Source of the DNA: Escherichia phage UPEC03
Strand: one strand, 5' to 3'
Sequence record: MW250785
DNA: 64,000 nucleotides
The stretch's first letter is position 1; each line of letters begins with the position of its first letter. Position numbers and translations under genes: made by a program. Shown one piece after another: positions 3,617-53,342 of this stretch. Under the pieces are notes generated by a model, which had not been told where the DNA came from, did no database searches, and was given only the letters and a program-made list of their open reading frames with translations.

Positions 3617-4014
3617 TGGACGATGTAACATTTGGTGTAATATTTCCTTTGCGTCTGGGTTCAGACAAGAGGATAGACCGGAGTTTCGTTAAATGTGGCG
3701 AATTCCGGCATTGTGTGTATTTTATTGAAATTGACGGTCGGATAGTGTATGTTGGAAAATGTCGTGATTTGTGGAAGCGGTTAGACACATACCGCAATTC
3801 GAAATACTGGCGGGAAGCAAACCCCAGTAATATTCTGAAAACCGCACGTCTGGAAATGGCAATCAAAAAACGTAAGCGTGTAAATCTTATCGTGACAACA
3901 CACGATGAAGACACATATCATGATTTTGAAATAAACATGATCCGAAAAATCAATCCTGAATGGAACAAACAGCACTATGACAAAGCTAACCAAAAATCAG
4001 AAAACCCTCTTTGA
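3616..4014 (+). CDS. denA: endonuclease II-like GIY-YIG nuclease
   Basis: 132 aa; GIY-YIG-like core VYFIEIDGRIVYVGKCRDLWKRLDTYR and C-terminal INPEWNKQH resemble T4 DenA as recalled; sits between nrdB and rnlA as in T4. Confidence 0.7.
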   Translation: MDDVTFGVIFPLRLGSDKRIDRSFVKCGEFRHCVYFIEIDGRIVYVGKCRDLWKRLDTYRNSKYWREANPSNILKTARLEMAIKKRKRVNLIVTTHDEDTYHDFEINMIRKINPEWNKQHYDKANQKSENPL

Positions 4015-5134
4015 CCAGTTGATGAAACTGTGTAACGAAAGCGAATGCTTCTACTTCATTGATCAAAAAACTGTGATGCAAACCAATGTTCGCATCTTTA
4101 ACTATCGCATGGCGAGCTATTCCGACTGGTTAAAACCTGGTGCGCTGGAATGTCGCGGCATCATGTTTGTAATGGATGGGGATACCCCCGTAAAACTCGC
4201 CAGTCGCCCTATGGAGAAGTTTTTCAACTATGCCGAGGTAAAGGCATGGGAAGCGCTGAAAGCCTCTCCTGTGACGATTGGTGAAACCGTAGTGGATGTG
4301 ATGATTAAGGAAGATGGTTCCCTGATCTCCACCTTCTGTGATTCCGGCTATCTGGGCGTTAAGTCTAAAGCATCCGTTCAATCTGAACAGGCTATGGACG
4401 CTATGAGCGTGATCCAGACTAACCGCGCATTGTTCGACCGCCTGACCGAACTGGTTAACGATGGTTTCACAGTCAACATGGAATACGTCGCACCGACAAA
4501 CCGTATTGTAATTGGCTATCAGGAACCAGCAGTGGTGATCCTGAACATCCGTAATAACGACACGGGCGAATATGTCGATTATCAGGATATCTTCGCAGAT
4601 GGTGTATTACGTCCGTTCCTGGTTGAGCGCGAGAAAATCGAAATCACCGATCTGGATGCGTTCATTACCGAAGCCTACACGAAAGAAGGTTTCGAGGGTT
4701 ACGTGATCAAAACTGATAAAGGTTTTGTGAAAGCGAAAACCAACTGGTATGTAAACCTTCACCGCACTAAGGATAGCATCAACAATAATAAGGATCTGTT
4801 CTTAAATATTGTTGAAAATACCGTCGATGACCTGAAACAAATGTTCCTCGATGATATGTACGCACTCAAGAAGATCGACGCGTTCGAAACGTTATTCCTT
4901 GATAGTCTGAATCGTCTGACTGCAAAAGCATTCCAGGCAATCGAAGACACGAAAGGCAAATCACGCAAAGATTACGCGATCGCCCTGAGCGCTGACTTAA
5001 CCCCTGACGGTCGTATTATCTTCGGGCCTATGATGCGTTATTTCGATGATACCGATAAGCAAAAGCTGGTCGATAACATCGTTGCATTAATGGCGAAGAA
5101 CTACGAACAGTTTATACCGGAAGAATATAAATGA
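3977..5134 (+). CDS. rnlA: RNA ligase 1
   Basis: 385 aa; strong resemblance to T4 Rnl1 as recalled (ALECRGIMF, lysine-adenylation motif IKEDGSL, IEGYV). Confidence 0.85.
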   Translation: MTKLTKNQKTLFDQLMKLCNESECFYFIDQKTVMQTNVRIFNYRMASYSDWLKPGALECRGIMFVMDGDTPVKLASRPMEKFFNYAEVKAWEALKASPVTIGETVVDVMIKEDGSLISTFCDSGYLGVKSKASVQSEQAMDAMSVIQTNRALFDRLTELVNDGFTVNMEYVAPTNRIVIGYQEPAVVILNIRNNDTGEYVDYQDIFADGVLRPFLVEREKIEITDLDAFITEAYTKEGFEGYVIKTDKGFVKAKTNWYVNLHRTKDSINNNKDLFLNIVENTVDDLKQMFLDDMYALKKIDAFETLFLDSLNRLTAKAFQAIEDTKGKSRKDYAIALSADLTPDGRIIFGPMMRYFDDTDKQKLVDNIVALMAKNYEQFIPEEYK

Positions 5135-24210: not shown

Positions 24211-24264
24211 GTTTCGATATGTGTAATATAACAAAGCCCTCACCGAGAGGCAAGGGCTTTTTTG
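24211..24264 (-). promoter_or_regulatory. PeSL-like stem-loop/promoter cassette
   Basis: minus-strand reading: agccc-TTGCCT...-gggct hairpin, TATATT, ACACATATCGAAACGGAA leader. Confidence 0.55.
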
Positions 24265-24560: not shown

Positions 24561-24701
24561 TTACCCCAAACAGATTTTACATTTACAGAGAGGACATTCC
24601 GCCTCTTTAACGCGCAAGCGCTTTGTTGCTGTTCGCTTCGCTGTGTTGTGATCATACACATGCAAACAGCGATAACAGATCACCAATCGTTTAGCCGTCA
24701 T
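24561..24701 (-). CDS. small zinc-ribbon-like protein (46 aa)
   Basis: hand-found ORF MTAKRLVICYRCLHV...CPLCKCKICLG; start overlaps upstream stop. Confidence 0.35.
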   Translation of the reverse strand: MTAKRLVICYRCLHVYDHNTAKRTATKRLRVKEAECPLCKCKICLG

Positions 24702-25164
24702 AACCACCACCGCAACGAACATCACCTTCAATGAACAGTTCGCGGTTATCTCTCAGGAGATTGTATTTCTTTTCGAGTTCCGGCCCGAATGCGTCCGCGT
24801 CGTCATACCAGTCATAGTTATAACTTCCGGTTTCCTCGTCGTATTCCGGTTCGTCGCCGCACTCATTGAAGTGAACGATTTTAACATCATCCAGATTCAG
24901 TTCTTTCAGCTTGTCCCAGATGCGGGTTATTTCGACGCTATTACATCCGAACGCTTCCAGTGTGATTGTACCGTCATCATGTACTTGAGGAACACCCCAG
25001 CGCGGACGATGATGAATTTCGGTGATCATATCCATCAGCGATTCAACGTTTGACTCACCGTAAATCTTTGCAACTTCCTGTTCTTTACCAGGGCGGACAA
25101 GTCCTATCCCGATAATGAAACTACTGCTTGAGCTATTGCTCACGAACCCAGAACGGATCTTCAT
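24691..25164 (-). CDS. hypothetical protein, paralogue A with conserved N-terminal peptide
   Basis: 157 aa; first 16 residues MKIRSGFVSNSSSSSF identical to ORF 28599..29111 although six codons differ synonymously; acidic YDW motifs. Confidence 0.65.
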   Translation of the reverse strand: MKIRSGFVSNSSSSSFIIGIGLVRPGKEQEVAKIYGESNVESLMDMITEIHHRPRWGVPQVHDDGTITLEAFGCNSVEITRIWDKLKELNLDDVKIVHFNECGDEPEYDEETGSYNYDWYDDADAFGPELEKKYNLLRDNRELFIEGDVRCGGGYDG

Positions 25165-25352
25165 CGCCTTGCCTCGTATTTCGCGTTATCTGCGATTTTC
25201 TCATGATACAGGTTGTATGACAACACCAGCGGGATACAAGCTACTATAAGCCCGATGATAGCCAGTTGATATTCGCGTTTATCGAACGCCATGAATGTAA
25301 TCGTAGCGCCCAGAATAAACACACCTAACGCAATGATGAAGAATAATGTCAT
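25161..25352 (-). CDS. small membrane protein
   Basis: 63 aa with two predicted TM helices; ATGA-coupled. Confidence 0.5.
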   Translation of the reverse strand: MTLFFIIALGVFILGATITFMAFDKREYQLAIIGLIVACIPLVLSYNLYHEKIADNAKYEARR

Positions 25353-25975
25353 TTTGGCAGGGTATCCATTTCACGAGATTTTGCTTTCAGGATGTCAATC
25401 ACAGTAGTCATCGCCTGTTCTACATCACCATCATAGTGAACCAGGAATGTTTTGTGAAGTCCCATGATCAGACGATTGATGATATAAGCCATTTCTGACG
25501 GTAACAGTTTACCATTCTGGCGATCGTACTTTCCAAACAAGCGGTAGAGTTCTGCGCTGTTGCCTGGCTTCTCAATGCTGAAATTATGCATCCCAGACAG
25601 AATACCATCCAGATACAGAACAGTTTTGTTATCACTACGCAGGTGTCCGCCGACCTTGTAGTAGTTGCTGAATACATACGGTTTTTCGCGGATATCTTCG
25701 ATATCGAAATCACCATGATCTTCGATGTTGCCAACATGGGCGAAGAAATGATGATCTTCCAGTTCGAGAAGGATTGCACCCTTTTTGTATGGGAATCCGA
25801 CTAAATCGATCTGCCAGCCATTTTCACCGACAAAGACATCATCGACAACCACGAAATCCGGCAGCATAGGCGCGTATGCGTGGTTCTTTTCGTTGTTTTC
25901 ACGATAGGCTTGTGGTTCGGACAGATACAGGATATCGCCTTTTACAACTTCACCCCAGAATACGTTACGTGACAT
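25349..25975 (-). CDS. hypothetical protein
   Basis: start moved to ATG 25975, which has RBS gagga and follows a hairpin. Confidence 0.5.
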   Translation of the reverse strand: MSRNVFWGEVVKGDILYLSEPQAYRENNEKNHAYAPMLPDFVVVDDVFVGENGWQIDLVGFPYKKGAILLELEDHHFFAHVGNIEDHGDFDIEDIREKPYVFSNYYKVGGHLRSDNKTVLYLDGILSGMHNFSIEKPGNSAELYRLFGKYDRQNGKLLPSEMAYIINRLIMGLHKTFLVHYDGDVEQAMTTVIDILKAKSREMDTLPK

Positions 25976-26016
25976 ATTATTTTCCTCAATATGCCCCCTT
26001 TCGGGGGCGGTCATTG

Positions 26017-28263
26017 TTAGATTTTGACTTCTTTTTCTTCCAGGACGATTTCACATTCGAATGATGTGGTTTCCCAGACTTTCCAGAAATCGGATGGAAT
26101 ATTATCTTCTTTCGGAAGAATATCTTTTGCAGCGATAGAAACTTTGGTTTCTTCGAAGTCCAGATCCGCGAACCATGCATGGGCTACTACAACACCGTAC
26201 ATTACGCGACTTAAACGGGCATTCAGTTTACGGACTTCCTGAATCGTTGCCTTTGTCTGCTTATCAAGATACTCGACTACCTGATCTTTGTCAAGCGCAT
26301 CCAGTTCAGATTTCACCTGATCGTAAGCCCACAGGATAATCAGGTCGCCGTTGTTCAGTTTCTTCTTACCTTCGTCACGTTTCGCGACGGTAGCCGCTAC
26401 AGCAGGAAGGGAGGAAACACCCTTGACTTTCACGTTCAGTTCTTTCGACATGTAAACATCAGTCGATTCTGTGCGCTCAACCTTCGGAGAGAACCCGTAA
26501 TCACGAATATCCTGTTCAGACAGCCATTCACCCGCTGCATCACCAAAGCGCTGTTTCAGCCCTTCTGCGTTGCGCAGTCCGATCGCGTTGTCACGGAAGA
26601 ACTTCATAACCTTCTGACGGCCTTTCAGGATTTCCAGACGCACGTTATCAGTCACGAACTCTTTACCGCTTAACCCGCGAGTCATGCCACGGTTAACCAG
26701 AGGCAGAGAGGTAAAGTCTACCAGTACCGACATACGGTCATCACCGATTTTTTCCAGCGGCTTGATAGTCAGGCCAGAAGCGCGAAGGTTTTTCAGTGTC
26801 GGAATATCAGTTTCCAGCGGCAGAACTTTCACGTTCACGATACCATCTTTAACGATGGTGAAGTTACGCACCTGCTTAGTTTCGATTTTTTCCGGCAGAC
26901 CGAATTCTTTCTGTTTGCTTTCTGGGATAGTCACATACCCTTCCAGATCCGTGTTGATGGAAATGTTAGGACGGGAACTGTTACCCACCAGATGTTTAAC
27001 CGATACTTTGGTTGTGGTCTGGGTAAATTTCGGTGTCCAGACTTCATGCGCTACCATTTGCGCCGCCAGTGCTTTACGTTCTTCTGGGATTGCAGCGTTT
27101 GCGATCTGTTCGGTCAGTTGATCCAGTGTATCATCTTCTTTCTGTACAGTCTGACGGCCTGTGCGGTTATACGCCCAGTGCTCAGAAGACAGGTCGATCA
27201 CTGTGTCAGTTTGTGCCAGCAGTTCGAGCGCATCAACCAGAGTGAACGCGTTTTCGTCTGGAACCATGTTGTAATCAATACCATCAACGAAACGCTGTGA
27301 TGGATCTACAACAGCCTGTGCAATCAGGTCTTTCGCGTTGGAGTAGTCCTGTTTGGTAAAGCAGTTGTCATACGCCTTGATCAGACGGACATCACCCAGC
27401 TTTTGAAGCACTTTCCATGCCAGATCAGGGTTCATTGTGTGCAGTGCATGATAAAGCACGACATACAGAACTTGCTGTTCGCTGGCGATGTTCGGATCGA
27501 ATCCGTCAACATCATTAATCGCGTTTTCACCCAGCGCCCAGATGTTTTTGATGTGTTCTGGAACTAGCACAACACCGTTTGCAGCGTTCAGGACATACAC
27601 GCACCCTTCGTCCAGGTAGATCGCATGGGTAGCATCAGCAACTTTGACTTCGATACGCGCGGAAGTCTGCGCGGTGATGATTTCGTTAAATGCTGGTTCG
27701 TATGCGTCGAAACCTTCAACGAATTTGTGCAATGCGTTGGTTGCTTCTGCCATTTTTTCCAGCAGAGGACGGTTTACATAATAACCGTATTCCAGGAACG
27801 CGATACTGTTGAAAGTCAGTGGCAGAACCGCACACGCTTTCAGAATATCATCGGTACGCCAGCAGTTATCATAACCATCAGTCAGGAAGATCAGGCTGTT
27901 CAGGTTGCCGTTTTCAGATTGCAGATCGGTAGCGATTTCCGCAGCCAGATTCAACGGCTCAACAAAGCCAGTACAACCCGTAGGTTTCAGGTAACGGTCG
28001 ATAGCCGCGCAGATGTTAGACAGGTCAGAGACATTGCTAACCTTCTCACCACGGAACACCGTGCCGTAATCGCCTTTGCTGGAGAAGTACAGGATCGAAA
28101 CGGTGTCATCCTGTTTAACCAGACTCGCCAGATTTGCTTTCAGGTGTTTACGGATCTTAGGCAGTTCGTTGTACATTGAACCGGATACGTCACACACGAA
28201 AACGTGGTTTGTCGGGGTTGGCTTCGATACAGCGTTTTTGAATTCGATATTTGTGATTGACAT
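26017..28263 (-). CDS. von Willebrand factor A (vWA) domain protein
   Basis: 748 aa; N-terminal MIDAS motif VFVCDVSGSM and later FLTDGYDN; long C-terminal region with no motif recognised. Confidence 0.7.
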   Translation of the reverse strand: MSITNIEFKNAVSKPTPTNHVFVCDVSGSMYNELPKIRKHLKANLASLVKQDDTVSILYFSSKGDYGTVFRGEKVSNVSDLSNICAAIDRYLKPTGCTGFVEPLNLAAEIATDLQSENGNLNSLIFLTDGYDNCWRTDDILKACAVLPLTFNSIAFLEYGYYVNRPLLEKMAEATNALHKFVEGFDAYEPAFNEIITAQTSARIEVKVADATHAIYLDEGCVYVLNAANGVVLVPEHIKNIWALGENAINDVDGFDPNIASEQQVLYVVLYHALHTMNPDLAWKVLQKLGDVRLIKAYDNCFTKQDYSNAKDLIAQAVVDPSQRFVDGIDYNMVPDENAFTLVDALELLAQTDTVIDLSSEHWAYNRTGRQTVQKEDDTLDQLTEQIANAAIPEERKALAAQMVAHEVWTPKFTQTTTKVSVKHLVGNSSRPNISINTDLEGYVTIPESKQKEFGLPEKIETKQVRNFTIVKDGIVNVKVLPLETDIPTLKNLRASGLTIKPLEKIGDDRMSVLVDFTSLPLVNRGMTRGLSGKEFVTDNVRLEILKGRQKVMKFFRDNAIGLRNAEGLKQRFGDAAGEWLSEQDIRDYGFSPKVERTESTDVYMSKELNVKVKGVSSLPAVAATVAKRDEGKKKLNNGDLIILWAYDQVKSELDALDKDQVVEYLDKQTKATIQEVRKLNARLSRVMYGVVVAHAWFADLDFEETKVSIAAKDILPKEDNIPSDFWKVWETTSFECEIVLEEKEVKI

Positions 28264-28599
28264 TTAAATTTTCTCGTATTTGAATTTTTCTAAAATTTCG
28301 TTAACTTTATTGCTTACTGCTTCGACTGTACGATCACACCCGAACTTACGCGCCAGGAGTTCAACGTATTCATCCATCGTAGTGAGTTTGGATTCTGCAA
28401 CGTCAAACGCAAGCGCATACATTACTGGATTCAATACTCGAACGATTTGGAGAGTATACTCGTTCAGTTCAAAACGTTCAAGATATTTTCGCAGAGAAAA
28501 TACATCAAACGGTGCGGGGCGATCCTGGCTAAAGGGGATCGACTCCCCTAATGCATAGCGAGGCATAACAACACAGACTTCGGTTTTTAACTTATCCAT
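28264..28599 (-). CDS. hypothetical protein
   Basis: 111-aa ORF between paralogue B and the vWA gene. Confidence 0.5.
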   Translation of the reverse strand: MDKLKTEVCVVMPRYALGESIPFSQDRPAPFDVFSLRKYLERFELNEYTLQIVRVLNPVMYALAFDVAESKLTTMDEYVELLARKFGCDRTVEAVSNKVNEILEKFKYEKI

Positions 28600-29111
28600 C
28601 AGTGATGACTCTTTGATGTGTGTTCAAGGTTACGGAAGATGTTTCCATGTTCCAGTTGAGTTCCGATCGGGCCGCATTCATCGGAGTACGTGAATTCATA
28701 GATAAACACGCCGTCCTGATTGCCATACTTCGTGTTGTACTCTTCATACAACCACATTTTGATCAGAGCGTCTTTCTCTTCTGTGTCCAGATCGTACCAG
28801 TCTCGCCCGTCATACGCAAGCGCAATTTGAGGGTTTGAACGGTAGCGGGTTTCTGCGCTTTCTTCGGTTTCCCAGTCATAGCGTTTATCGTCGTAGAACG
28901 ATTCAAAGCTATTACCCAGATGACCGCCTAAGTCACGGTGAACATGATTGACCACTTCTTCCGCTGTTAACGGAGGATTGTAGTAACCGCAGTTCGGAAC
29001 GCAATCACCCATCATTTCGCGCAGGTTGTCGATATTAGTCGGATCTTTCGGGAACCGGACGATGAAACTACTTGATGAACTGTTGCTCACAAAACCAGAA
29101 CGGATTTTCAT
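28599..29111 (-). CDS. hypothetical protein, paralogue B with conserved N-terminal peptide
   Basis: 170 aa; N-terminus MKIRSGFVSNSSSSSF identical to paralogue A; RBS gagga. Confidence 0.65.
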   Translation of the reverse strand: MKIRSGFVSNSSSSSFIVRFPKDPTNIDNLREMMGDCVPNCGYYNPPLTAEEVVNHVHRDLGGHLGNSFESFYDDKRYDWETEESAETRYRSNPQIALAYDGRDWYDLDTEEKDALIKMWLYEEYNTKYGNQDGVFIYEFTYSDECGPIGTQLEHGNIFRNLEHTSKSHH

Positions 29112-29341
29112 TTTACATCCTCAAATTGTAAGTTTTCTTTGGTTGCGTTCGCAATGGCTTTTTCGTTGCTCAGTGTTACTATGCGCAGACGTTCTCCAGT
29201 AAAGCCGTCGCATTCAGTGATACTTACCCAGTCAAAAGGTTTAGCCATTTCAATCGCACGTTCCAGCGATACGGTAGAACCGACCAAATCACTAAATGTA
29301 TAGTAATCTTCGCTTAAACTTTCAACAGTATAAATTTTCAC
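29108..29341 (-). CDS. hypothetical protein
   Basis: 77 aa; N-terminus MKIYTVESL resembles that of ORF 29577..29849. Confidence 0.5.
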   Translation of the reverse strand: MKIYTVESLSEDYYTFSDLVGSTVSLERAIEMAKPFDWVSITECDGFTGERLRIVTLSNEKAIANATKENLQFEDVK

Positions 29342-29580
29342 GATACTTTACCTTTTGTTTCAGATTTCAGGACGATGTTACTGTAAGGATCTTTTGCTAC
29401 CAGTTCCCACAGGTCGCCAGGATGTTCCCCGCTACGGTAGACGGATGAACGGATGATTTCGTTAAACTTGCTCAGGGCTTCGTCTATGTCGTCATACCCG
29501 CATTTGAGAGGCTTACGGTTGCAACGAATGAAGAACATTTCGTTGGTATTCTCCCAGCGTTCGGCGTTTTTAACCTTCAT
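29338..29580 (-). CDS. hypothetical protein
   Basis: 80-aa ATGA-coupled ORF. Confidence 0.5.
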   Translation of the reverse strand: MKVKNAERWENTNEMFFIRCNRKPLKCGYDDIDEALSKFNEIIRSSVYRSGEHPGDLWELVAKDPYSNIVLKSETKGKVS

Positions 29581-29849: not shown

Positions 29850-29868
29850 AATAATTTCCTCACGAAAA

Positions 29869-29884
29869 AGCCCCTTTCGGGGCT
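29869..29884. terminator. hairpin terminator
   Basis: agcccc-tttc-ggggct with flanking A/T runs. Confidence 0.55.
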
Positions 29885-29891
29885 TGATTAA

Positions 29892-30223: not shown

Positions 30224-30760
30224 TCAGTATGCAATGTTTAATTTTGCAAATTTACCAAAATGTTTTATCGCTTCCCGATCGTATGCTTTTGCAGCCTCGT
30301 ATTCGTCACGATAGGAACCGATATGTTTAACCTTGCCGTCAATCTTTATCTGTGCAATGTAACGTATTCCAGTAGGTTGATCACGTACACATACACCCTT
30401 GAATCGACTGGTTGCTACTCTTCGTTTAGTCCGGTTCTGACAGTTTCGGGATTGATCCGCTTCACGCAAGTTATCAATCCCGTCGCCAGCCTCAACACCA
30501 TTTTTATGATCAATCACATCAGGCAGTTTTCCGGTTGCAACGTAGTAGATGATTCGATGACGTAGATATCCTTTGCTTTTGAAATAAACGCGGGTATATC
30601 CTCCTTTAATCTTCGAACCTACTTCCTTTCCGATCAAGTCAGAACGTTTGTGTGACGTTCGTATAATTGTCCCCGTTTGTATATCAACAGAAACAGTTTT
30701 AAGGAATTCGTCAATTCCTTTCTGTTCTTCTTCGATTGTTCTTAGTCCGTTGTGTGACAT
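30224..30760 (-). CDS. HNH homing endonuclease with AP2 domain
   Basis: HNH core RHRIIYYVATGKLPDVIDHKNGVEAGDGIDNLR; AP2-like FKGVCVRD...YIAQIKIDGK...GSYRDEYEAAKAYD; overlaps the methyltransferase gene 3' end. Confidence 0.7.
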   Translation of the reverse strand: MSHNGLRTIEEEQKGIDEFLKTVSVDIQTGTIIRTSHKRSDLIGKEVGSKIKGGYTRVYFKSKGYLRHRIIYYVATGKLPDVIDHKNGVEAGDGIDNLREADQSRNCQNRTKRRVATSRFKGVCVRDQPTGIRYIAQIKIDGKVKHIGSYRDEYEAAKAYDREAIKHFGKFAKLNIAY

Positions 30761-31665
30761 AACACCTTCTTGATTTGTTTTGCTATAGCCTCGATTACTG
30801 GTATTGAAACAGAATTACCTGCTTGTTTATACGCTTGCATCTTGCTTTTGTTGATAATAAACGAATCTGGGAAACCCTGCAAACGAAAACACTCACGGGG
30901 AGTAAGTCTTCGGGGGTTCTTTCCTTCCTGCAATACCAGACATTGAACACCATCTTTATAGTAATTTGCAGTGATAGTCCCAGTGTGCGTAGAATCGCTT
31001 GTGACGGCCTGATAACCGAAACCCTTACCGTTTGCCTTATTTCGTTCCTTACGCTCTCTAAAGCCCTTCCATGCGTTATCTGACAGGGTGAACGAATCAT
31101 CAGCATCTTCGAGGATGTCGCCTACGCGTGTAGGGGTACGCGGGGGAACCGGAAACGAAAAGAATACATCATCCAGGAAGCAGACAATAAACACGCGTTC
31201 CCGTCTTTGGGGTAGTCCGAAATCCTTTGTGTTCAGGCGTTGATAGAATACGTTATATCCTTCGGCCTCCAGAAGCCCGTAAATCGTTTTAAACGTCTTC
31301 CCCTTGTCATGGGTTAGCAGTTCAGGCACGTTCTCAAAGAACAACACACGGGGCTTTTTAGCGCGTATAATGCGGAGGATTTCGAAGAACACCGTACCGC
31401 GTACATCATCAAAGCCCAGTTTCAATCCGGCTTTACTGAACGCCTGACACGGGAACCCCGCGAGCAGGATATCATGATCAGGTACTTTGTTTTCATCAAT
31501 GGCGAATAGATCACCCTGTAGGTTATCATCGCCCCAGTTTTCGATATATGTTTGCTGTGCGAACTTGTCGATTTCAGACGTTAAAAGGCATTCGACACCG
31601 CCGAACGCCTTATCAAATCCTAATCGAACCCCGCCCACACCAGCGCAGAGGTCAATTATTTTCAT
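30742..31665 (-). CDS. DNA (cytosine-5)-methyltransferase
   Basis: 307 aa with C5-MTase motifs I DLCAGVGG, IV GFPCQAFS, VI FFENV, VIII QRRERVFIV and X AGNSV. Confidence 0.85.
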   Translation of the reverse strand: MKIIDLCAGVGGVRLGFDKAFGGVECLLTSEIDKFAQQTYIENWGDDNLQGDLFAIDENKVPDHDILLAGFPCQAFSKAGLKLGFDDVRGTVFFEILRIIRAKKPRVLFFENVPELLTHDKGKTFKTIYGLLEAEGYNVFYQRLNTKDFGLPQRRERVFIVCFLDDVFFSFPVPPRTPTRVGDILEDADDSFTLSDNAWKGFRERKERNKANGKGFGYQAVTSDSTHTGTITANYYKDGVQCLVLQEGKNPRRLTPRECFRLQGFPDSFIINKSKMQAYKQAGNSVSIPVIEAIAKQIKKVLCHTTD

Positions 31666-31931: not shown

Positions 31932-32164
31932 TCCGTTTTAATACCATGTCGGTATGCGTCAATCCCCAGCGGGGTAATCAGCAACCATGCTTTCGAATTA
32001 TCGTGATAGCCCGTTACCCTTCGAGCGTAACCTTTTTGAATCAGGGCATCACGCCCTGATTTGCTGGGTACGTCATCGAAATCTAAGTCTAGCACCTTAG
32101 TTGCATATCCGTAAAGTTTATACAGAACATCAATTTCAGCGCCGGACAATTTAGGATACATCAT
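31922..32164 (-). CDS. hypothetical protein
   Basis: 80-aa ORF. Confidence 0.5.
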   Translation of the reverse strand: MMYPKLSGAEIDVLYKLYGYATKVLDLDFDDVPSKSGRDALIQKGYARRVTGYHDNSKAWLLITPLGIDAYRHGIKTEWH

Positions 32165-33162
32165 TTGTAATACCCCACAACATGATCGCGGTATACGCGT
32201 TCGATGAAATCGTTCCAGAATTCGCGGTCAACTTCTTTCGGATATGTTGAAATCGCTGCAAGCCGTTCGACTTCGCCCATGACTTCTTCCAGCTTTTCCT
32301 GTACGGTTGCGAACGGTACGCCGCCAGCTTTAACCAGTTTCAGGAATGCGCTATCAGGCAGAGGATAAACGATATCACCATCTTTGTAAATCTGGATCAA
32401 CTGCATACCACCGCGCAACGCGTGACTTAAAGCCTTCCAGTCGATGCCGTTGTTGGCTTCTGCTTGTCGTGCGCGTTCTCCGTATTCATCCCAGAGTTTG
32501 TACACTGACTTACGCATTTCATCGGCTTTGATCGTGAACTGGAATTTACGCCCCAGCACTTCATAGAAGTCCTGACAACCAGATTTCATTGTCGTGTCGG
32601 TAACGAATCGGCAGAACTCGTTTGTAGGGAAACGATTCTTGATGTCAGACACTTTCACTTCACGCGTATAGCGTTTCATATCTGGTGTGAATTCCTGAAT
32701 ACCACCGATCGTTTCGGTTTCTTTCAGTACATCGACAACTTCGCGCAGTGCAGCCAGTCGGGAACCTTTCACACCATATTTTGCGGCTTGCTTGCGAACA
32801 TAACCGAACAGGCCAGTTAGTTCAGTGGTGTAAAAACGCCAGCGGTTAGCGCGGATATACTGCCAGATTTCAGAGTTAGCGATCAGCTTGTCATCCGAAG
32901 CGTGAAGCATATCGAGCGCTACGGTATCACCATCACACGCAAGGCTGATAAACTTAGTCAGACTATACAACTGACGATCAACGTCGTCTACGGTGTTTTT
33001 AGAGCTTTTATCGCCCGTGCTGGTGTCGATAGACTTCTTCGCAGTGCCTAACAGGATTTCGCGAGGATGAGGGAGATAGATCCCTTTGTAGTCTTTATCG
33101 CTTGTTGGTGTTTCCAGTCCGTAAAGATGGGATCCAAAAATCATTTCAGTAATCATTTTCAT
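32161..33162 (-). CDS. nucleotidyltransferase (pol-beta superfamily) of unknown specificity
   Basis: GS-x10-DxD signature FGSHLYGLETPTSDKDYKG; start moved to ATG 33162, which has RBS ggag and a TAATG overlap with the upstream stop. Confidence 0.55.
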   Translation of the reverse strand: MKMITEMIFGSHLYGLETPTSDKDYKGIYLPHPREILLGTAKKSIDTSTGDKSSKNTVDDVDRQLYSLTKFISLACDGDTVALDMLHASDDKLIANSEIWQYIRANRWRFYTTELTGLFGYVRKQAAKYGVKGSRLAALREVVDVLKETETIGGIQEFTPDMKRYTREVKVSDIKNRFPTNEFCRFVTDTTMKSGCQDFYEVLGRKFQFTIKADEMRKSVYKLWDEYGERARQAEANNGIDWKALSHALRGGMQLIQIYKDGDIVYPLPDSAFLKLVKAGGVPFATVQEKLEEVMGEVERLAAISTYPKEVDREFWNDFIERVYRDHVVGYYK

Positions 33163-34547: not shown

Positions 34548-34603
34548 TATATAATACAAAAGCCCTCACGCGAACGCAAGGGCTTTTTTAATCTTTTATC
34601 AGA
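34548..34603 (-). promoter_or_regulatory. PeSL-like stem-loop/promoter cassette
   Basis: minus-strand reading: aaaaaagccc-TTGCGT...-gggctttt hairpin, TATTAT, ACACATACCGCATGAA leader. Confidence 0.5.
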
Positions 34604-35666
34604 GTCCCGTGAAAGCTACAACGATTTGATAGTGGTCATCGAAGAATTCCCCTTGTCGTTGTACGACCTCATGTAAGGGCATCCAGAACGCCTCTAACGC
34701 ATCGTCAGAACCGCCCATAATGCGGGGCAGACTACCATCATTGTTAGGCTCTAACTTGATGTACTGCGCCACAGTCGGTTTTGAGAAGTGTACGGAACGC
34801 TTCGGATGATCGAACAACATCGAATTGCGGATTGAACCACGGATAACCTTTTCAGGAACCTTGATCCGTACCTCTTCGAGCAGTTCGCGGATCGCACAAT
34901 CCAGGAACGTTTCATTTGCGTTTTTGTGTCCGCCGGGAAGGGCTAACGCGTCTTTACCTGGGGCGAACTTACGACGAATTACCAGCAGGTGATTGTTGCA
35001 CACAACCACACTATCACCCGTGCAACAGTTTAGCGCGTCGGGGTATGGGTAGTTTTTGAATTTCTCCAATTCGCTTTCCCATTTCTCGTATTCGTAGAAT
35101 AAACGCCAGAACGTGTCTTCCATCATCCATTTGTCGATATAATCAACGGTTGCTTGAGGAACAAAGCGCAACAGTTTCTTATCCCACCCGTTTTTATGGT
35201 TAAAGATAATCGGACGCAGATCGGTTGCTGATAGATCCTTGCCGTTAATCTGGACAGGTGGAACTGGTACGTGTGTCCATCCGAACGCTTTAAGCCAGTA
35301 TGAACCTGCATCTTTTTCGTAACCGTAGATAGCGATTTTGTCGCCTTTGGTTTCCCTGATAGCAGTACGAACAGAGGTTTTCCATTTCTCTTCGTTGTAA
35401 AGATAATCTGGAATGTGCTCAAACTGAACACGAACAACATCTTCGATCGGGAAGTTAGCGTTTAACCATGAGAAGATCATGGTTTGACGCTCACGCGCCG
35501 TCAGCGGGTTTAAAACGTTAGGGTAAGCATATGCTGAACCCAGAAGGATGTAAACGATCTTTGCTTCTCCGAGTGCTTTACGCACCATTGCTGCATGACC
35601 ATTATGGAAGGGTTGGAATCTGCCAATTACGACAGCTTTATCAAATTGTTTCATAACGTGCTCCAC
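34599..35666 (-). CDS. bifunctional NMN adenylyltransferase / Nudix hydrolase (NatV/NadM-like)
   Basis: 355 aa; HxGH motif GRFQPFHNGH at the N-terminus; C-terminal Nudix box GGHKNANETFLDCAIRELLEEV. Confidence 0.8.
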   Translation of the reverse strand: MEHVMKQFDKAVVIGRFQPFHNGHAAMVRKALGEAKIVYILLGSAYAYPNVLNPLTARERQTMIFSWLNANFPIEDVVRVQFEHIPDYLYNEEKWKTSVRTAIRETKGDKIAIYGYEKDAGSYWLKAFGWTHVPVPPVQINGKDLSATDLRPIIFNHKNGWDKKLLRFVPQATVDYIDKWMMEDTFWRLFYEYEKWESELEKFKNYPYPDALNCCTGDSVVVCNNHLLVIRRKFAPGKDALALPGGHKNANETFLDCAIRELLEEVRIKVPEKVIRGSIRNSMLFDHPKRSVHFSKPTVAQYIKLEPNNDGSLPRIMGGSDDALEAFWMPLHEVVQRQGEFFDDHYQIVVAFTGL

Positions 35667-35827: not shown

Positions 35828-36754
35828 TTATTTACGAGAATCGAAAATCACTTTACCAGCGTAATCAGAACCCATGACAGTTTGAGGTACACCGCCCTGA
35901 TATTTTTCCGCGATGGTCTGCTGAACATCAAGTTCTTTCCAGCGAATCATTTCTGGTGTAATGGTACGCTGCAACACGGCGTTCGCTTCGGCTTCTTTCT
36001 TAGCCGCATACAGACGGGCATCAGCATCACGCTCGTTAGCCTGTGCAGCATTGCTACGGGCTTCTTTATCGGCAATTGCCTGAACAACTGCCTGTTGAGC
36101 GATTTGCTCTTTACGTGCCAGTTCTGCTTTCTCTGCGTTCACCTGTTCTTCACGAATTTTCGTGTTTTCAACCTGCTTCTTGATCGCTTCCGGCAGGTCG
36201 ATATCCTGCAAGAATACCTGTTTCACGGTGTAACCGTAAGGGCGGGCATACTCTTCAACTTCCTGCTGGATCGCGATCTGTAGCTGGCTTTGAACTTCTG
36301 CATTATACAGATCCTGTGCTTTCGGTACAGATTTACCGAACTCACGGACAGTTGACAGAAGTTTTTCAGTCACATATTTATCCAGCGCCTGATCCTGACT
36401 ACCCGCATTGATACGGTTGATCGGGGCTTTGCTACCATCGAACTGTAACATCACGGTCATATCCACAGTGGATTTGAATTTATCCTGGGACGGAACCTGC
36501 AATTTGTCAAACTTCATTGCGATGTCTTTGGTGTTGAACACCTCGAAATCAGCCAGTGGATTTACCAGGTGGAAACCAGGCAGAACAGGCTTCGGTGAAA
36601 CTTTACCCATGAAGGTTTGAGTTTTTACCGTACCATCCTGAACGATAGTGTACGAGTTCGGAACCAGCCACAGAGCGGCGATTACGCCCAGAGCGATCAG
36701 TGTGGTTTTCTTCGGGTTGTTTACGATAGTGTTTAAGTTCATCATTATTTCCAT
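35828..36754 (-). CDS. SPFH/band-7 (prohibitin/HflC-like) membrane protein
   Basis: N-terminal TM helix, SPFH-like core, Ala/Gln/Glu-rich coiled coil; exact start uncertain (ATG at 36754, 36745 or 36742). Confidence 0.65.
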   Translation of the reverse strand: MEIMMNLNTIVNNPKKTTLIALGVIAALWLVPNSYTIVQDGTVKTQTFMGKVSPKPVLPGFHLVNPLADFEVFNTKDIAMKFDKLQVPSQDKFKSTVDMTVMLQFDGSKAPINRINAGSQDQALDKYVTEKLLSTVREFGKSVPKAQDLYNAEVQSQLQIAIQQEVEEYARPYGYTVKQVFLQDIDLPEAIKKQVENTKIREEQVNAEKAELARKEQIAQQAVVQAIADKEARSNAAQANERDADARLYAAKKEAEANAVLQRTITPEMIRWKELDVQQTIAEKYQGGVPQTVMGSDYAGKVIFDSRK

Positions 36755-43019: not shown

Positions 43020-44366
43020 TTAAAAGTTCTCTTCGACGAATGCAGCCAGTCGCCCACGATATACGGTATCCAGGATCACATGACTTGAATGACCGTACTC
43101 TTTAAGTTTTTCAACCGCATACACAAAGCCGTTGTTAACAGCAGTGTTGCGCGGGTTGTCAATCTGTTTAATGTTCCCGCATAGTATCAGAAGGGTGTTC
43201 TCACCGCAACGGGAAATGATGGATTTGATTTCGTGATTGCTCAAGTTTTGACATTCATCAACAATCAGAACCGAACCTTTACCCGGATCAGGATGCCCGA
43301 TTGAGCGCCCACGGAAGTAATACAGGCTAGGGAACTGGACAACGTTTTTCTCCAGCAGCCCTTCTACGTATTTGTCAACTTCCGGTTGATCCTTAAACAG
43401 AATGTTCAGGCTCGTAATACATGGTTCTACAGCAGGACGCAGTTTTTCGCCAAGAGTACCAGGTAAGAACCCGATTTCGCCCGACAGAGGGCTATCTGCC
43501 TTGACATACATCAGGTTTGCGAAGTGTCCCGCGTTTACCATGTGCATTGCACCAGCAACAGCCAGCATGGTTTTACCTGAACCCGCCGCGCCCATGATGG
43601 TCACAACGTCATTGTTTTTGTCCAGAATAGCATCAACGAATGACGCTTGCAGAGCATCGCGAGGCTGAATTGTTTTCATCAGCTTACGCTTTAACGCCTG
43701 TTCGTGCTTAATAGGCAACACTTCAAGCTGAAACTCTCCAGCATTCACCACACGCCCTACAATCTCACCACACGATAGAATGTATTGGTTAGGGTAGAAA
43801 TCCGCGTCAGGAAGCGATGAATACGTTATAACGGCAACAGGCCCGACATACTCCAGGACTTCAACAGTTTCCCAGAACAGAGGCAGGTCGATATAACCTG
43901 AATACAACACATCACTATCTTTCAGCGAGTCATCGCCAGTGTATTGAAGAACCGAACAACCTTTAGACATCGCGATCAACAGCATGTTAATGTCACGAGT
44001 CACCAGAGTTGCGCCCTGCTGAATACAAGTTGCAATGATCCGCGCATCCTGTTTATCCAGAGGGAATTCTTCGGTGCCGTCATAATCGACGATTTTCAGT
44101 GTTACGCTTTCCGGTACTGCTGGGTTCGATAAGTTTAACGAAACCCCTGTTTGGGTAATTGCTTCATAATTTTGTCCCAGGATTGCTTTGGACAAAAGCC
44201 GGATCGCCAGTCGTGCTTCATGAGCGGTTCGCTCTTTGCTTTTCAGGTGATCCAGTTCTTCCATCGTTGCAGCGGTGATAATGATTTCGCTGTCAGGTTC
44301 GATGTAAGAATAGATTGAATATGGGTTACTAATCAAAACATTGGTGTCTAATACGTATTTTGACAT
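43020..44366 (-). CDS. PIN-domain PhoH-like ATPase (PhoH2-type)
   Basis: N-terminal PIN-like YVLDTNVLI; Walker A GAAGSGKT; Walker B VLIVDECQN. Confidence 0.8.
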   Translation of the reverse strand: MSKYVLDTNVLISNPYSIYSYIEPDSEIIITAATMEELDHLKSKERTAHEARLAIRLLSKAILGQNYEAITQTGVSLNLSNPAVPESVTLKIVDYDGTEEFPLDKQDARIIATCIQQGATLVTRDINMLLIAMSKGCSVLQYTGDDSLKDSDVLYSGYIDLPLFWETVEVLEYVGPVAVITYSSLPDADFYPNQYILSCGEIVGRVVNAGEFQLEVLPIKHEQALKRKLMKTIQPRDALQASFVDAILDKNNDVVTIMGAAGSGKTMLAVAGAMHMVNAGHFANLMYVKADSPLSGEIGFLPGTLGEKLRPAVEPCITSLNILFKDQPEVDKYVEGLLEKNVVQFPSLYYFRGRSIGHPDPGKGSVLIVDECQNLSNHEIKSIISRCGENTLLILCGNIKQIDNPRNTAVNNGFVYAVEKLKEYGHSSHVILDTVYRGRLAAFVEENF

Positions 44367-48391: not shown

Positions 48392-48684
48392 CAGAATGTG
48401 ATCTCCGCAAACTGCATTCTACGCTCAATCGCATGGATAGCGTTATCACGCTGTTCTTTGTTTTCATATCCAGCCCAGGTAATCGGAGTTGAACAGATCA
48501 GGTGAAAAGTGATTGCTGGGTGTCTCTTCCCTTCAACAACGATTGTTGCATCATCTTCGATCCAGGTTACGTGATCCAGATTCACCGGATAGTTTCTTAC
48601 GGTAACAGTTTCACCAACCATAGGCGACACGTCCAGAATATCACGATCACGAACGTATGATTTAATACGAGATACGATTAACAT
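48391..48684 (-). CDS. hypothetical protein
   Basis: 97-aa ORF. Confidence 0.5.
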   Translation of the reverse strand: MLIVSRIKSYVRDRDILDVSPMVGETVTVRNYPVNLDHVTWIEDDATIVVEGKRHPAITFHLICSTPITWAGYENKEQRDNAIHAIERRMQFAEITF

Positions 48685-49838
48685 TATTTCAACTCCACTG
48701 CATATACATCGGTTTCAGGGGCTTTGTGTACGCGCATATCTTTACCACATACCGCATAAGCCGGACAGTTACGGCAACCGTTATGATCCTTGTTGCCCGT
48801 CAGTTCTTTACGGAACTGTTTTGTTTTCGGGTGTTCCCAGATATCCTTCACAAAATCTTCGGCTTCCAGAACATCCAGACCTTCTTCCCAGCCACCTTCA
48901 ACCCAACGTTCGGTAAACGAGCAAGGGAAGAACTGACCACGTTCATTAATGTAAGAGCTAAACATCGTCGCTTCACAGTCTTCGGCGTATTGCTTGTACT
49001 GTTCGAAGTTCGGGTGTCCCTCCATCGCTTCAACGAAAGCGGGGGCTGAACAGCTATCGAATCCAAATCCTACACCAGAATCGAGGCAATATTCAACAAG
49101 TTTTTTATATTGTTCGCGGGTAACGGTGTCCCAGTTCTTACCGCGTCCTTTTTGTTTCAGTCCCAGGAACACGATCGCGTTGACTTGTTTCAGGCGCGGA
49201 TCATTCTTCACGGCATCAACCACGTTAAACGCATCATCATAGGTTTTCGAGCTAACCATGAAGTGAAGGTTGATTTGCTGTTGTCCGGCTTCTGTCAGGT
49301 TCGCTACTGAGTCGAAAGCGACATCAAAACCAGCGTGTTTATAAACCGATACCGCAACAGCCCCAGCAACCGCCGCTAAACGCGCTGCAACGTCTTTTGA
49401 TACGTCAGCAATGGTAAGGTTCGGTACAATGCCTTTAGAACGCGCATACGCCATCATATCGAACATATCAGGGTTTGTTTGCCCCTGTGCATCAGCACCG
49501 AGTGCGCATTGAGTCAGCCAGGGCATTTTGTCGATGATTTTTTTGAAGTTGGCAAGATCCATGTTGAACCCGTTAGGGTTATTGGACTTGTAGCAGAACC
49601 CGCAGAGTTTACCAGCGGGACCATTACATTTGGTAGTGATCTCAACATCCAAGATTTCTGGGAATGGGGCATAGGTAGGATCAGTTTCGAACGATGTTCC
49701 CCAGCGAGCAAACTCACCAGTTTTAACGTTGAAATTGTAGTTGTACCAATTAGAGCGAGCGAAGCGCATATTACCCTGCTGGTAAATCATTAGCGAAGGG
49801 GCTTTCATTACAGTCTGTGCGCGGTCAATAATATCCAT
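48684..49838 (-). CDS. putative Fe-S / radical-SAM-like enzyme
   Basis: 384 aa; Cys cluster TTKCNGPAGKLCGFCYK (Cx7CxxC) near the N-terminus and C-terminal GCRNCPAYAVCG. Confidence 0.4.
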   Translation of the reverse strand: MDIIDRAQTVMKAPSLMIYQQGNMRFARSNWYNYNFNVKTGEFARWGTSFETDPTYAPFPEILDVEITTKCNGPAGKLCGFCYKSNNPNGFNMDLANFKKIIDKMPWLTQCALGADAQGQTNPDMFDMMAYARSKGIVPNLTIADVSKDVAARLAAVAGAVAVSVYKHAGFDVAFDSVANLTEAGQQQINLHFMVSSKTYDDAFNVVDAVKNDPRLKQVNAIVFLGLKQKGRGKNWDTVTREQYKKLVEYCLDSGVGFGFDSCSAPAFVEAMEGHPNFEQYKQYAEDCEATMFSSYINERGQFFPCSFTERWVEGGWEEGLDVLEAEDFVKDIWEHPKTKQFRKELTGNKDHNGCRNCPAYAVCGKDMRVHKAPETDVYAVELK

Positions 49839-52503: not shown

Positions 52504-52812
52504 TTAATCGAATTTTTCTGGCAACTGGTCTACAAGTGCTTGAGTTTGATGAAGTTCTTCACTCAATTTATCACGATAATGAACCAATTCGCGGGTTCTT
52601 GATGCGGAATAGCTAATGAGTTTATCAGCGGTAGCGGTGTAACCGTAACCAGCACACGCGATTTCCAGTTTTGCGTTATCGCCGTTAGGTACGCGGATAT
52701 GAGCATACGCCAGCAAGTTTTTAACCGCTTGCAACAGTTCATGATCTTCTTTGCCGATGATAAACTGGTTTGGTTCTGCTGAATCCATATACAGTTCTTC
52801 GTCTTTGTTCAT
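52504..52812 (-). CDS. hypothetical protein
   Basis: 102-aa ORF. Confidence 0.5.
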   Translation of the reverse strand: MNKDEELYMDSAEPNQFIIGKEDHELLQAVKNLLAYAHIRVPNGDNAKLEIACAGYGYTATADKLISYSASRTRELVHYRDKLSEELHQTQALVDQLPEKFD

Positions 52813-53342
52813 TTTGCAGCCTTATACATTTCCAGGACGCGGTTCATGTGATCTTGAGATTGAGGCACACCCGCGAAGTTCAGTTTGATGAAGAATTCCA
52901 GACGATCCTTTTTGGTGCATTCATCCAGCCCCAGGGCAGGTAATGAAATGTTTTCAAAGGCTCGTTGTTCGTGTCGTGGTATTTCGTCCCAGAACAAACG
53001 GGAACCGTCCGGCATAGGAATCCCAATTTCACCTTCGTAGACTTTGATAATCGTCGTCAGGCGTTGTTTGCCGTCGATCACTTCTACCCAATGGGTTTCG
53101 TTGAACTGACTATCAACCGCGATCGCAATGATACCGCAAGGGAAACCACTGATCAGGGTAGTCAGAAACGCATCTTGCTCTTTCTGCGTCCACACATAGG
53201 GGCGCTGGTAAGATGGATTCAGATCCAGATCTTTATTCTTCCACCAATGCAGATAACTCCCAACCATGATCGCGTGATCGCGACTGCGAAAAGTTAACTG
53301 ATCGCGGATACGGTTATGAACCGGAATATCATCTTTAGACAT
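52809..53342 (-). CDS. DUF262 (ParB-like / GmrSD N-terminal-like) domain protein
   Basis: motifs NPSYQRPYVW and IDGKQRLTT; 177 aa with no DUF1524/HNH partner domain. Confidence 0.55.
   Translation of the reverse strand: MSKDDIPVHNRIRDQLTFRSRDHAIMVGSYLHWWKNKDLDLNPSYQRPYVWTQKEQDAFLTTLISGFPCGIIAIAVDSQFNETHWVEVIDGKQRLTTIIKVYEGEIGIPMPDGSRLFWDEIPRHEQRAFENISLPALGLDECTKKDRLEFFIKLNFAGVPQSQDHMNRVLEMYKAAK

Follow-up and report, generated by a model that had tools for sequence, protein, structure and literature searches.

A vWA protein of Escherichia phage UPEC03 with a predicted ArnB/Sec23-24-type core: a possible stand-alone, MIDAS-dependent adaptor

The 64,000-nucleotide (nt) stretch of Escherichia phage UPEC03 analysed here (sequence record MW250785; the window) contains a gene encoding a protein of 748 amino acids (aa) with an N-terminal vWA domain. 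The locus raises the question of how such a large vWA protein works in a phage: on its own, with the genes to which it is coupled, with an ATPase, or as part of the virion. We favour, with a confidence somewhat short of even, a stand-alone protein-binding adaptor that depends on a MIDAS (metal-ion-dependent adhesion site) and is made before the late genes. The new element is a vWA/MIDAS scaffold of predicted ArnB/Sec23-24 type that carries a large C-terminal module and has no partner ATPase. The vWA label is not new, since 'putative vWa containing protein' has been in use since 2012. No functional study of the family was found in full-text literature searches.

The vWA domain, its MIDAS and the predicted fold

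A preliminary description of this DNA had reported the open reading frame (ORF) and two N-terminal motifs, DVSGSM and TDGYDN, typical of a vWA domain; the ORF, the motifs and the domain were all confirmed. Residues 21-176 exceed the Pfam gathering scores of VWA_3 (28.7 against 27 bits), VWA_2 (27.3 against 27) and VWA (26 against 23.8), and VWA_2 is matched in 48 of 52 family members. Among the 52 homologues, which extend down to 32% identity, the MIDAS residues T98 and D129 never vary, and D25, S27 and S29 are kept in 90% or more. The MIDAS is also intact in bacterial homologues. This conservation suggests that metal-dependent ligand binding is under selection, and it is the strongest mechanistic clue on the 748-aa protein. 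Pfam thresholds, the full MIDAS (DxSxS, T, D) and a Rossmann-like α/β fold together place the protein in the vWA superfamily. It is acidic (isoelectric point, pI, 5.1; family median 5.27), and neither a signal peptide nor a transmembrane segment is visible in its sequence, from which the protein appears to be cytoplasmic.

A structure prediction of the whole protein, one of the checks proposed in the preliminary description, was carried out with AlphaFold2 on the 52 homologues. The model is confident, with a predicted local distance difference test (pLDDT) of 88.7 and a predicted template modelling score (pTM) of 0.78, and it has no disordered segment. A strand (residues 3-7) is followed by the vWA domain (18-197), five β-strands (203-244) and a set of helices (248-350). 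The strand 3-7 and the strands 203-244 would complete a β-sandwich that the vWA domain divides. A sandwich interrupted in this way and followed by a helical domain defines the ArnB/Sec23-24 core, and 4fx5 and the Sec23/24 core have been described as structural orthologues of ArnB (PMC12852372). With the matching elements in the same order, roughly the first 270-350 residues can be filed under this core by prediction, the helical part tentatively.

Structural comparisons are consistent with this placement. Alignments of the model to ArnB, 4fx5 and Sec24 span 267-292 residues, which is about 90-110 residues beyond the vWA domain alone, and those to Sec24 and Sec23 span 258-292 residues. Ku70, TFIIH p44/p34, Rpn10 and the vWA domains of chelatase and NorD proteins score below Sec23/24, as expected from a vWA domain alone. 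The same ranking was obtained with Foldseek, in which ITIH1, ArnB and 4fx5 were matched at E ~1e-11. The helices 248-350 lie where the helical domain of ArnB or Sec23 would be expected and are its putative counterpart; the template modelling score (TM-score) to the query is at most 0.30.

The phage protein differs from each of its nearest structural relatives. ArnB of Sulfolobus has about 380 aa and ends in a phosphorylated four-helix bundle that is read by the FHA/zinc-finger partner ArnA. Compared with ArnB/ArnE and the Catenulispora vWA protein 4fx5, to which its identity is 14-16%, the phage protein is longer by about 400 residues, and its neighbours have no FHA, zinc-finger, kinase or phosphatase match in Pfam or NCBIfam. 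With the Sec23/Sec24 inner coat of COPII (identity 9-12%), only the trunk and the sandwich superpose, at a TM-score normalised to the query of 0.23-0.28. The zinc finger of Sec23/Sec24 is missing from the phage protein; no conserved cysteine cluster is present among the 52 homologues, in which only C301 is conserved. By sequence, the nearest vWA domains belong to VIT-vWA proteins such as ITIH1/4 (ITIH1 at a profile E of 4.9e-6), which are also among the top folds. The ITIH proteins are secreted and have an N-terminal VIT domain, whereas the phage protein has neither a signal peptide nor a VIT domain.

The C-terminal module (residues ~353-748) is predicted to be of mixed α/β type with a long helical hairpin at residues 638-693. 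Its highly conserved motifs are RPNIS (431-435), RNYTIVKDG (466-474), PLINR (521-525), GIRDYGFSPK (585-594) and STDxYMSKELNVKIKGxSSLP (600-620). The preliminary description could place no motif in the roughly 550 aa that follow the vWA domain and proposed a profile search of this part. That view holds, as nothing but vWA matches was returned by Pfam (52 members), NCBIfam, PADLOC and PDB (sequence and two profiles). A match to the TFIIS N-domain (E 0.25) was regarded as noise. A capsid-targeting sequence at the N-terminus was rejected, because the sequence of the N-terminus is not conserved and the model predicts it to be a strand of the fold. A secreted adhesin or sortase target was likewise rejected, since the NCBIfam 'marine sortase target' model, with a cut-off of 551 bits, gave a score of 25.5 and the sequence shows no signal peptide.

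Distribution of the family and the neighbouring genes

The phage protein is matched end to end by PHROG 2426 (E = 0, residues 1-748). In a tblastn search of 50,697 deposited phage genomes, 503 records were matched, 497 of them over at least 80% of the length. Identities are 86-99% in the Karam/Slopek/Pseudoteven group, 45-51% in Ackermannviridae (such as CBA120, LIMEstone1 and Vi01-like phages), 35% in Alishewanella and 23-24% in Rhizobium phages; eight Bacillus phage records were also matched. Only 38 records of Escherichia phages were matched, so most T-even phages evidently lack the gene. LIMEstone1 gp108 (48.6% identical), CBA120 orf143 and RB16p109 belong to the same family end to end, at 48-89% identity, and show no difference in kind; a vWA label and one virion mass-spectrometry detection are attached to them, and no function.

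A profile of residues 200-748 matched 1369 cluster representatives at 50% identity, of which 888 had E <= 1e-30. All of the 150 best representatives have the same layout, in which the module begins at about residue 200-250 of a protein of 680-820 aa, and the C-terminal module is therefore essentially always fused to a vWA domain. Relatives are encoded by 143 stretches in IMG/VR, many of them on contigs of 300-450 kilobases (kb). Full-length bacterial homologues (32-34% identical) occur on chromosome-size contigs of Achromobacter anxifer (locus L012, 7089-9269) and Novimethylophilus kurashikiensis (locus L009, 7275-9422). The helical insert that the phage protein has at about residues 377-410 is missing from both. 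The ORFs around them have no match in Pfam, PHROG or PADLOC, and the sole neighbour common to both loci is an HD phosphohydrolase about 5 kb downstream.

The region 24600-29400 of the window is 98.6% identical throughout to Cronobacter phages vB_CsaM_leN and leE and Enterobacter phage EC-W1, and 80-90% identical to 128 further phages of Klebsiella, Enterobacter and Escherichia. On account of these identities the window was assigned to the T4-like Karamvirus/Pseudotevenvirus/Slopekvirus group. The gene order 170-111-748-208-63-157 (named by protein length in aa; Table 1) is kept in RB16, Matisse and Karam-type phages.

Table 1. Coordinates of the 748-aa gene, its domains, the neighbouring genes and the hairpins in the window
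Feature	Position	Strand	Remark
Terminator-type hairpin AAGCCCC-GAAA-GGGGCTTTTT	29865..29885	-	Upstream boundary of gene run
170-aa 'GFVSNSSSSSF' family member	28599..29111	-	PHROG 7397
111-aa ORF	28264..28599	-	PHROG 7677 (unknown function); stop abuts vWA start (TAAATG)
748-aa vWA-family protein	26017..28263	-	PHROG 2426 (function unknown there); stop codon included
MIDAS element DVSGSM	28174-28191	-	Residues 25-30
vWA (Rossmann-like α/β) domain	27673..28212	-	Residues 18-197
MIDAS element GCTGF	27964-27978	-	T98
MIDAS element TDGYDN	27865-27882	-	Residues 128-133
Strands and helical domain	27208..27672	-	Residues 198-352
C-terminal α/β module	26020..27207	-	Residues 353-748
Hairpin GCCCCC-GAAA-GGGGGC, intergenic	25993..26008	-	No T-run; next gene's Shine-Dalgarno sequence lies 7 nt downstream
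208-aa ORF	25349..25975	-	PHROG 7309 (unknown function); start corrected from 26014
63-aa ORF, hydrophobic, probably a membrane protein	25161..25352	-	PHROG 7160
157-aa divergent paralogue of the 170-aa protein	24691..25164	-	EHG motif changed to EKK
Strong terminator-like hairpin	24233..24260	-	Downstream boundary of gene run

The coupling of the vWA gene to the upstream 111-aa ORF, as first described, is real. The 170/111 junction is TGATG, and the 77/170, 208/63 and 63/157 junctions are ATGA overlaps. The gene downstream of the vWA gene was called mechanically as a 221-aa ORF (25349-26014). It most likely starts at ATG 25975, because this codon is preceded by a GAGGAA Shine-Dalgarno sequence, alignment to the PHROG profile begins at residue 14 and the annotations of relatives have the same start.

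The preliminary description also placed the gene between two paralogues that share a leader. The 170- and 157-aa proteins do have their first 17 residues, MKIRSGFVSNSSSSSFI, in common, with an overall identity of about 25%, but the 157-aa gene lies three genes downstream and is not adjacent to the vWA gene. The supposed leader is not a leader peptide; the motif belongs to a family of proteins with end-to-end homology, in which it forms the invariant N-terminus.

The same description regarded the gene as part of an accessory operon. The partnership is lineage-specific. Nor is the vWA gene simply accessory, since it is present in every Ackermannviridae record among the tblastn matches listed. 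The 170-, 111- and 208-aa neighbours are confined to the Karam/Slopek/Pseudoteven group, except that the 111-aa ORF is also found in Yersinia phage JC221 and one Pantoea phage. A comparison of presence and absence across related phages, which had been suggested as a check, thus gives a divided answer: the vWA gene is widespread, whereas its coupled neighbours are restricted.

Neighbours were surveyed by BLAST clustering of the ORFs within 6 kb at 85 loci, representing 34 lineages at 60% vWA identity. No conserved partner gene emerged, as no neighbour family occurs in more than four of the 34 lineages. The most widespread neighbour, in four of them, is nicotinamide phosphoribosyltransferase (NadV). 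A NadV gene or fragment stands beside the vWA gene, mostly directly upstream, at eight loci (L002, L037, L039, L047, L051, L006, L100 and L105), and NadV is the only non-mobile neighbour that recurs outside a single family. The other neighbours that recur outside Ackermannviridae are homing endonucleases of the HNH, GIY-YIG and TnsA-like types. Among known components of anti-phage defence, PADLOC gave no match for the vWA protein or its operon neighbours, and none that was significant for the neighbours of the bacterial homologue. Since the neighbours are lineage-specific and no family is common to more than a few lineages, the vWA protein is not tied to these partners. The tight coupling is real in its own lineage, and the vWA gene behaves as a stand-alone, strongly constrained gene.

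Several side observations concern these neighbours. In two related metagenomic phage contigs (L023, 3636-6510 and 13589-14510; L024, 3781-6970), a different vWA protein, assigned to Pfam DUF2828/DUF7788 and with a DVSGSM MIDAS, is followed about 1 kb downstream by a GFVSNSSSSSF member. L023 also carries a gene similar to the major vault protein (Vault_3, MVP_shoulder). The link between GFVSNSSSSSF and vWA genes is merely suggestive, because in three other lineages no vWA gene is present within 8 kb of the GFVSNSSSSSF genes. At L021 and L025, radical-SAM genes were seen within 1-3 kb of genes for the GFVSNSSSSSF family. In LIMEstone1 and other Ackermannviridae (L002, 7245-7568), a gene of about 105 aa labelled 'acyl carrier protein' lies 38-43 nt downstream of the vWA gene; by eye, it has DELD in place of the phosphopantetheine-serine motif DSLD.

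Candidate roles of the 748-aa protein

In the adaptor that we favour, Mg2+ or Mn2+ held by the MIDAS would capture, on one specific partner protein, a side chain that is acidic (or phosphorylated). A second binding surface, or a surface for self-association, would be supplied by the C-terminal module. The adaptor would then sequester, bridge or relocalise a host or phage protein in the phase of infection that precedes late expression. The gene lies in a minus-strand block of small genes beside baseplate genes (25, 26 and others) on the plus strand. Within the gene run, the coding strand has no T4-type late promoter TATAAATA (at most one mismatch) upstream of the vWA gene, and none occurs in the LIMEstone1 locus. 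A scan for sigma-70 promoters was no better than shuffled sequences. The gene context appears to be that of early/middle-type small genes without a late promoter. Late expression and a place in a structural module, as would be usual for a structural protein, are not suggested by these sequence features.

Four points weigh against the adaptor. Target binding by the MIDAS is something that we infer; the expression class is taken solely from the gene context and the missing late-promoter motif; and the polar motifs so strongly conserved in the C-terminal module might just as well belong to the active site of an enzyme. Finally, the LIMEstone1 orthologue gp108 was detected in purified virions with 6 peptides and 11% coverage, where the obvious contaminants DNA ligase, PhoH and gp44 were each represented by 1 peptide (PMC3296691). 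This detection points to at least some virion association.

The main rival is therefore a low-copy virion component, either a minor structural protein or one that is packaged with the DNA and ejected together with it, whose MIDAS would bind another virion protein or, on entry, a target in the host envelope or cytoplasm. We consider it unlikely, though the strongest of the alternatives. Besides the LIMEstone1 peptides, on which gp108 is annotated as a 'confirmed structural protein', it can draw on 1 peptide from the Vi01-like phage Sajous1 and on automatic annotations that read 'minor tail protein'. The Sajous1 orthologue, however, was listed among non-structural DNA/RNA proteins (PMC10892097) on that single peptide. 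No basis was found for the labels 'minor tail protein' and 'head-tail adaptor' in one relative; PHROG 2426 has the entry 'unknown function', which leaves the former without visible basis, and the match of the 157-aa protein covers no more than part of phrog_132. The position of the gene in an early/middle-type block on the strand opposite the baseplate genes, and the missing late promoter motif, also speak against a virion protein. So does the N-terminus, which is predicted to be a strand of the fold and not a cleavable targeting peptide, and so do the homologues in bacterial chromosomal islands without phage structural genes.

A lineage-specific complex of the vWA protein with its coupled neighbours, the 111-aa protein and/or the Ser-rich GFVSNSSSSSF paralogues, is an improbable explanation that does not exclude the others. 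The invariant Ser-rich N-terminus, possibly phosphorylated, could for example serve as the ligand of the MIDAS. The abutting or overlapping genes and the synteny kept in RB16, Matisse and Karam-type phages favour such a complex, as does the GFVSNSSSSSF member about 1 kb from a DUF2828/DUF7788 vWA gene in an unrelated metagenomic lineage. ArnB-type proteins, moreover, work via phospho-dependent partners (PMC12852372). On the other hand, loci of Ackermannviridae, Rhizobium phages and jumbo phages retain the vWA protein but lack these neighbours, and in three GFVSNSSSSSF lineages, as mentioned above, no vWA gene is nearby. The neighbours also evolve several times faster: at 86-89% identity of the vWA protein, identity is 35-64% for the 111-aa neighbour and 44% for the 208-aa neighbour.

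A more far-reaching form of the adaptor reading, which we hold to be improbable, would make the family a phage counterpart of the ArnB/Sec23-24 hub that extends from T4-like phages and Ackermannviridae to 400-kb jumbo phages. Its C-terminal module and MIDAS would trap a host factor, for takeover or anti-defence, and in some lineages the Ser-rich GFVSNSSSSSF proteins would be phospho- or metal-ligand partners.

A vWA co-factor of a MoxR-class AAA+ chaperone (CobT/ViaA/NorD-like), with a phage ATPase elsewhere or with the host RavA hijacked, is very unlikely. The MoxR-vWA pairs (CobS/CobT, RavA/ViaA, NorQ/NorD, and those of jumbo phages and ATV) share with the phage protein the trait of an intracellular, virus-encoded vWA with a MIDAS, but the phage protein has another domain architecture and no partner ATPase in the genome annotation or at related loci. 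The preliminary description had seen no AAA+/MoxR partner, and this was borne out: no MoxR-type AAA+ protein is present among the large ORFs of the window, and the annotation of a 98%-identical relative's 179-kb genome lists none of MoxR/CobS type, the clamp loader being its sole AAA+; hidden Markov models were not run on unannotated hypothetical proteins beyond the window. No MoxR/CobS ATPase recurs next to the vWA gene in the 85 loci. The 748-aa protein has no Pfam or NCBIfam match to a CobT, ChlD or ViaA family model, and its nearest vWA relatives in sequence and fold are of the ITIH/ArnB/4fx5 type, not of the chelatase type. A CobT/MoxR identity was rejected on the missing ATPase. Clear homology to a CobT-type or routine structural protein with a partner ATPase, which the preliminary description had named as its refuting case, was looked for and not found.

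A Ku- or TFIIH-p44-like scaffold acting on phage DNA ends or in repair is scarcely credible, because the protein is acidic and has no zinc-finger cysteines (C301 alone is conserved), and because a gp2-type protector of DNA ends is already encoded by the phage; a Ku-like identity was also rejected on the poorer fold match and the missing DNA-encircling β-barrel.

Boundaries of the gene run, other genes of the window and implications

The preliminary description reported a hairpin without a T-run between the vWA gene and the next gene. This hairpin is real and its sequence has no T-run; its coordinates had to be shifted by one nucleotide, to 25993-26008. It is intergenic, given the most likely start of the next gene at ATG 25975. 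With its flanks it has a folding energy of -17.7 kcal/mol (z = -2.8 against shuffled sequences), and it has no match in Rfam. RB16, Matisse and every IMG/VR relative checked have this 16-nt sequence unchanged and at the corresponding position. The sequence after it reads CAT(A/G)TTGAGG in the Karam and Pseudoteven types; in Slopekvirus it reads TTTGAGG, and the hairpin carries a terminator annotation there.

GC-rich hairpins closed by a GAAA tetraloop were observed at gene-block boundaries, both in the window (29865-29885 and 25993-26008) and at loci L004 and L029-L031. At other intergenic sites a shortened form, GCCCC-GAAA-GGGGC, with an A-tract on one side and a T-run on the other, reappears as an ordinary terminator. 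The GAAA hairpins with an A-tract and a T-run look, from their sequence, like bidirectional terminators. Among the GAAA versions, the one behind the vWA gene alone has no T-run and is thus a tail-less variant of the phage terminator hairpin. Its sequence is compatible with an RNA-stabilising or processing element, or with a weak attenuator, and the role in processing or attenuation that the preliminary description preferred to termination is plausible.

Other genes of the window were noted in passing. A 351-aa protein (34599-35654, minus strand) has cytidylyltransferase-like (NMN adenylyltransferase-type) and NUDIX domains; with NadV, annotated elsewhere in relatives, it looks like an NAD+ salvage pair. 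An RlaP-family nucleotidyltransferase (RNA repair pathway, polymerase-beta-like; 32161-33162, minus strand) and a T4 Rnl1-type RNA ligase (3977-5134, plus strand) possibly have RNA-repair functions. The minus strand also encodes a 448-aa PhoH-like ATPase with a fused PIN domain (43020-44366), a 384-aa protein with a SPASM iron-sulfur domain (48684-49838), labelled 'Fe-S oxidoreductase' in one relative, and a 308-aa SPFH/Band 7 family protein (35828-36754). A 178-aa ORF (30224-30760, minus strand) overlaps the end of a C5 DNA methyltransferase gene (30742-31665, minus strand) and resembles, by eye, an HNH/AP2-type homing endonuclease; in PP889464.1 another, shorter gene is found at this place. 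A gene at about 52809-53342 (minus strand) has a positional counterpart of equal length (177 aa) in PP889464.1 that is labelled 'DefenseFinder protein' (host takeover category). This gene is a possible anti-defence candidate, the correspondence being one of position and length alone.

The vWA family, with at least 1369 clusters at 50% identity, is among the larger uncharacterised families of big virulent phages, and its carriers include therapeutic-candidate phages of Klebsiella, Enterobacter, Salmonella and Dickeya. Nothing mechanistically surprising has emerged so far, and a minor virion component or assembly factor, if that is what the protein is, would be an ordinary result. The family is broad, well constrained and experimentally tractable: the vWA gene is under much stronger constraint than its surroundings, the metal site is intact, and the confident model can be used for the design of mutants. 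The ligand, once found, would show the role of a stand-alone vWA/MIDAS scaffold in the infected bacterium, and would also give a function to a module of about 400 residues without a relative in any library. If the protein does trap a host factor, it would define an unrecognised and widespread system of phage-host interaction.

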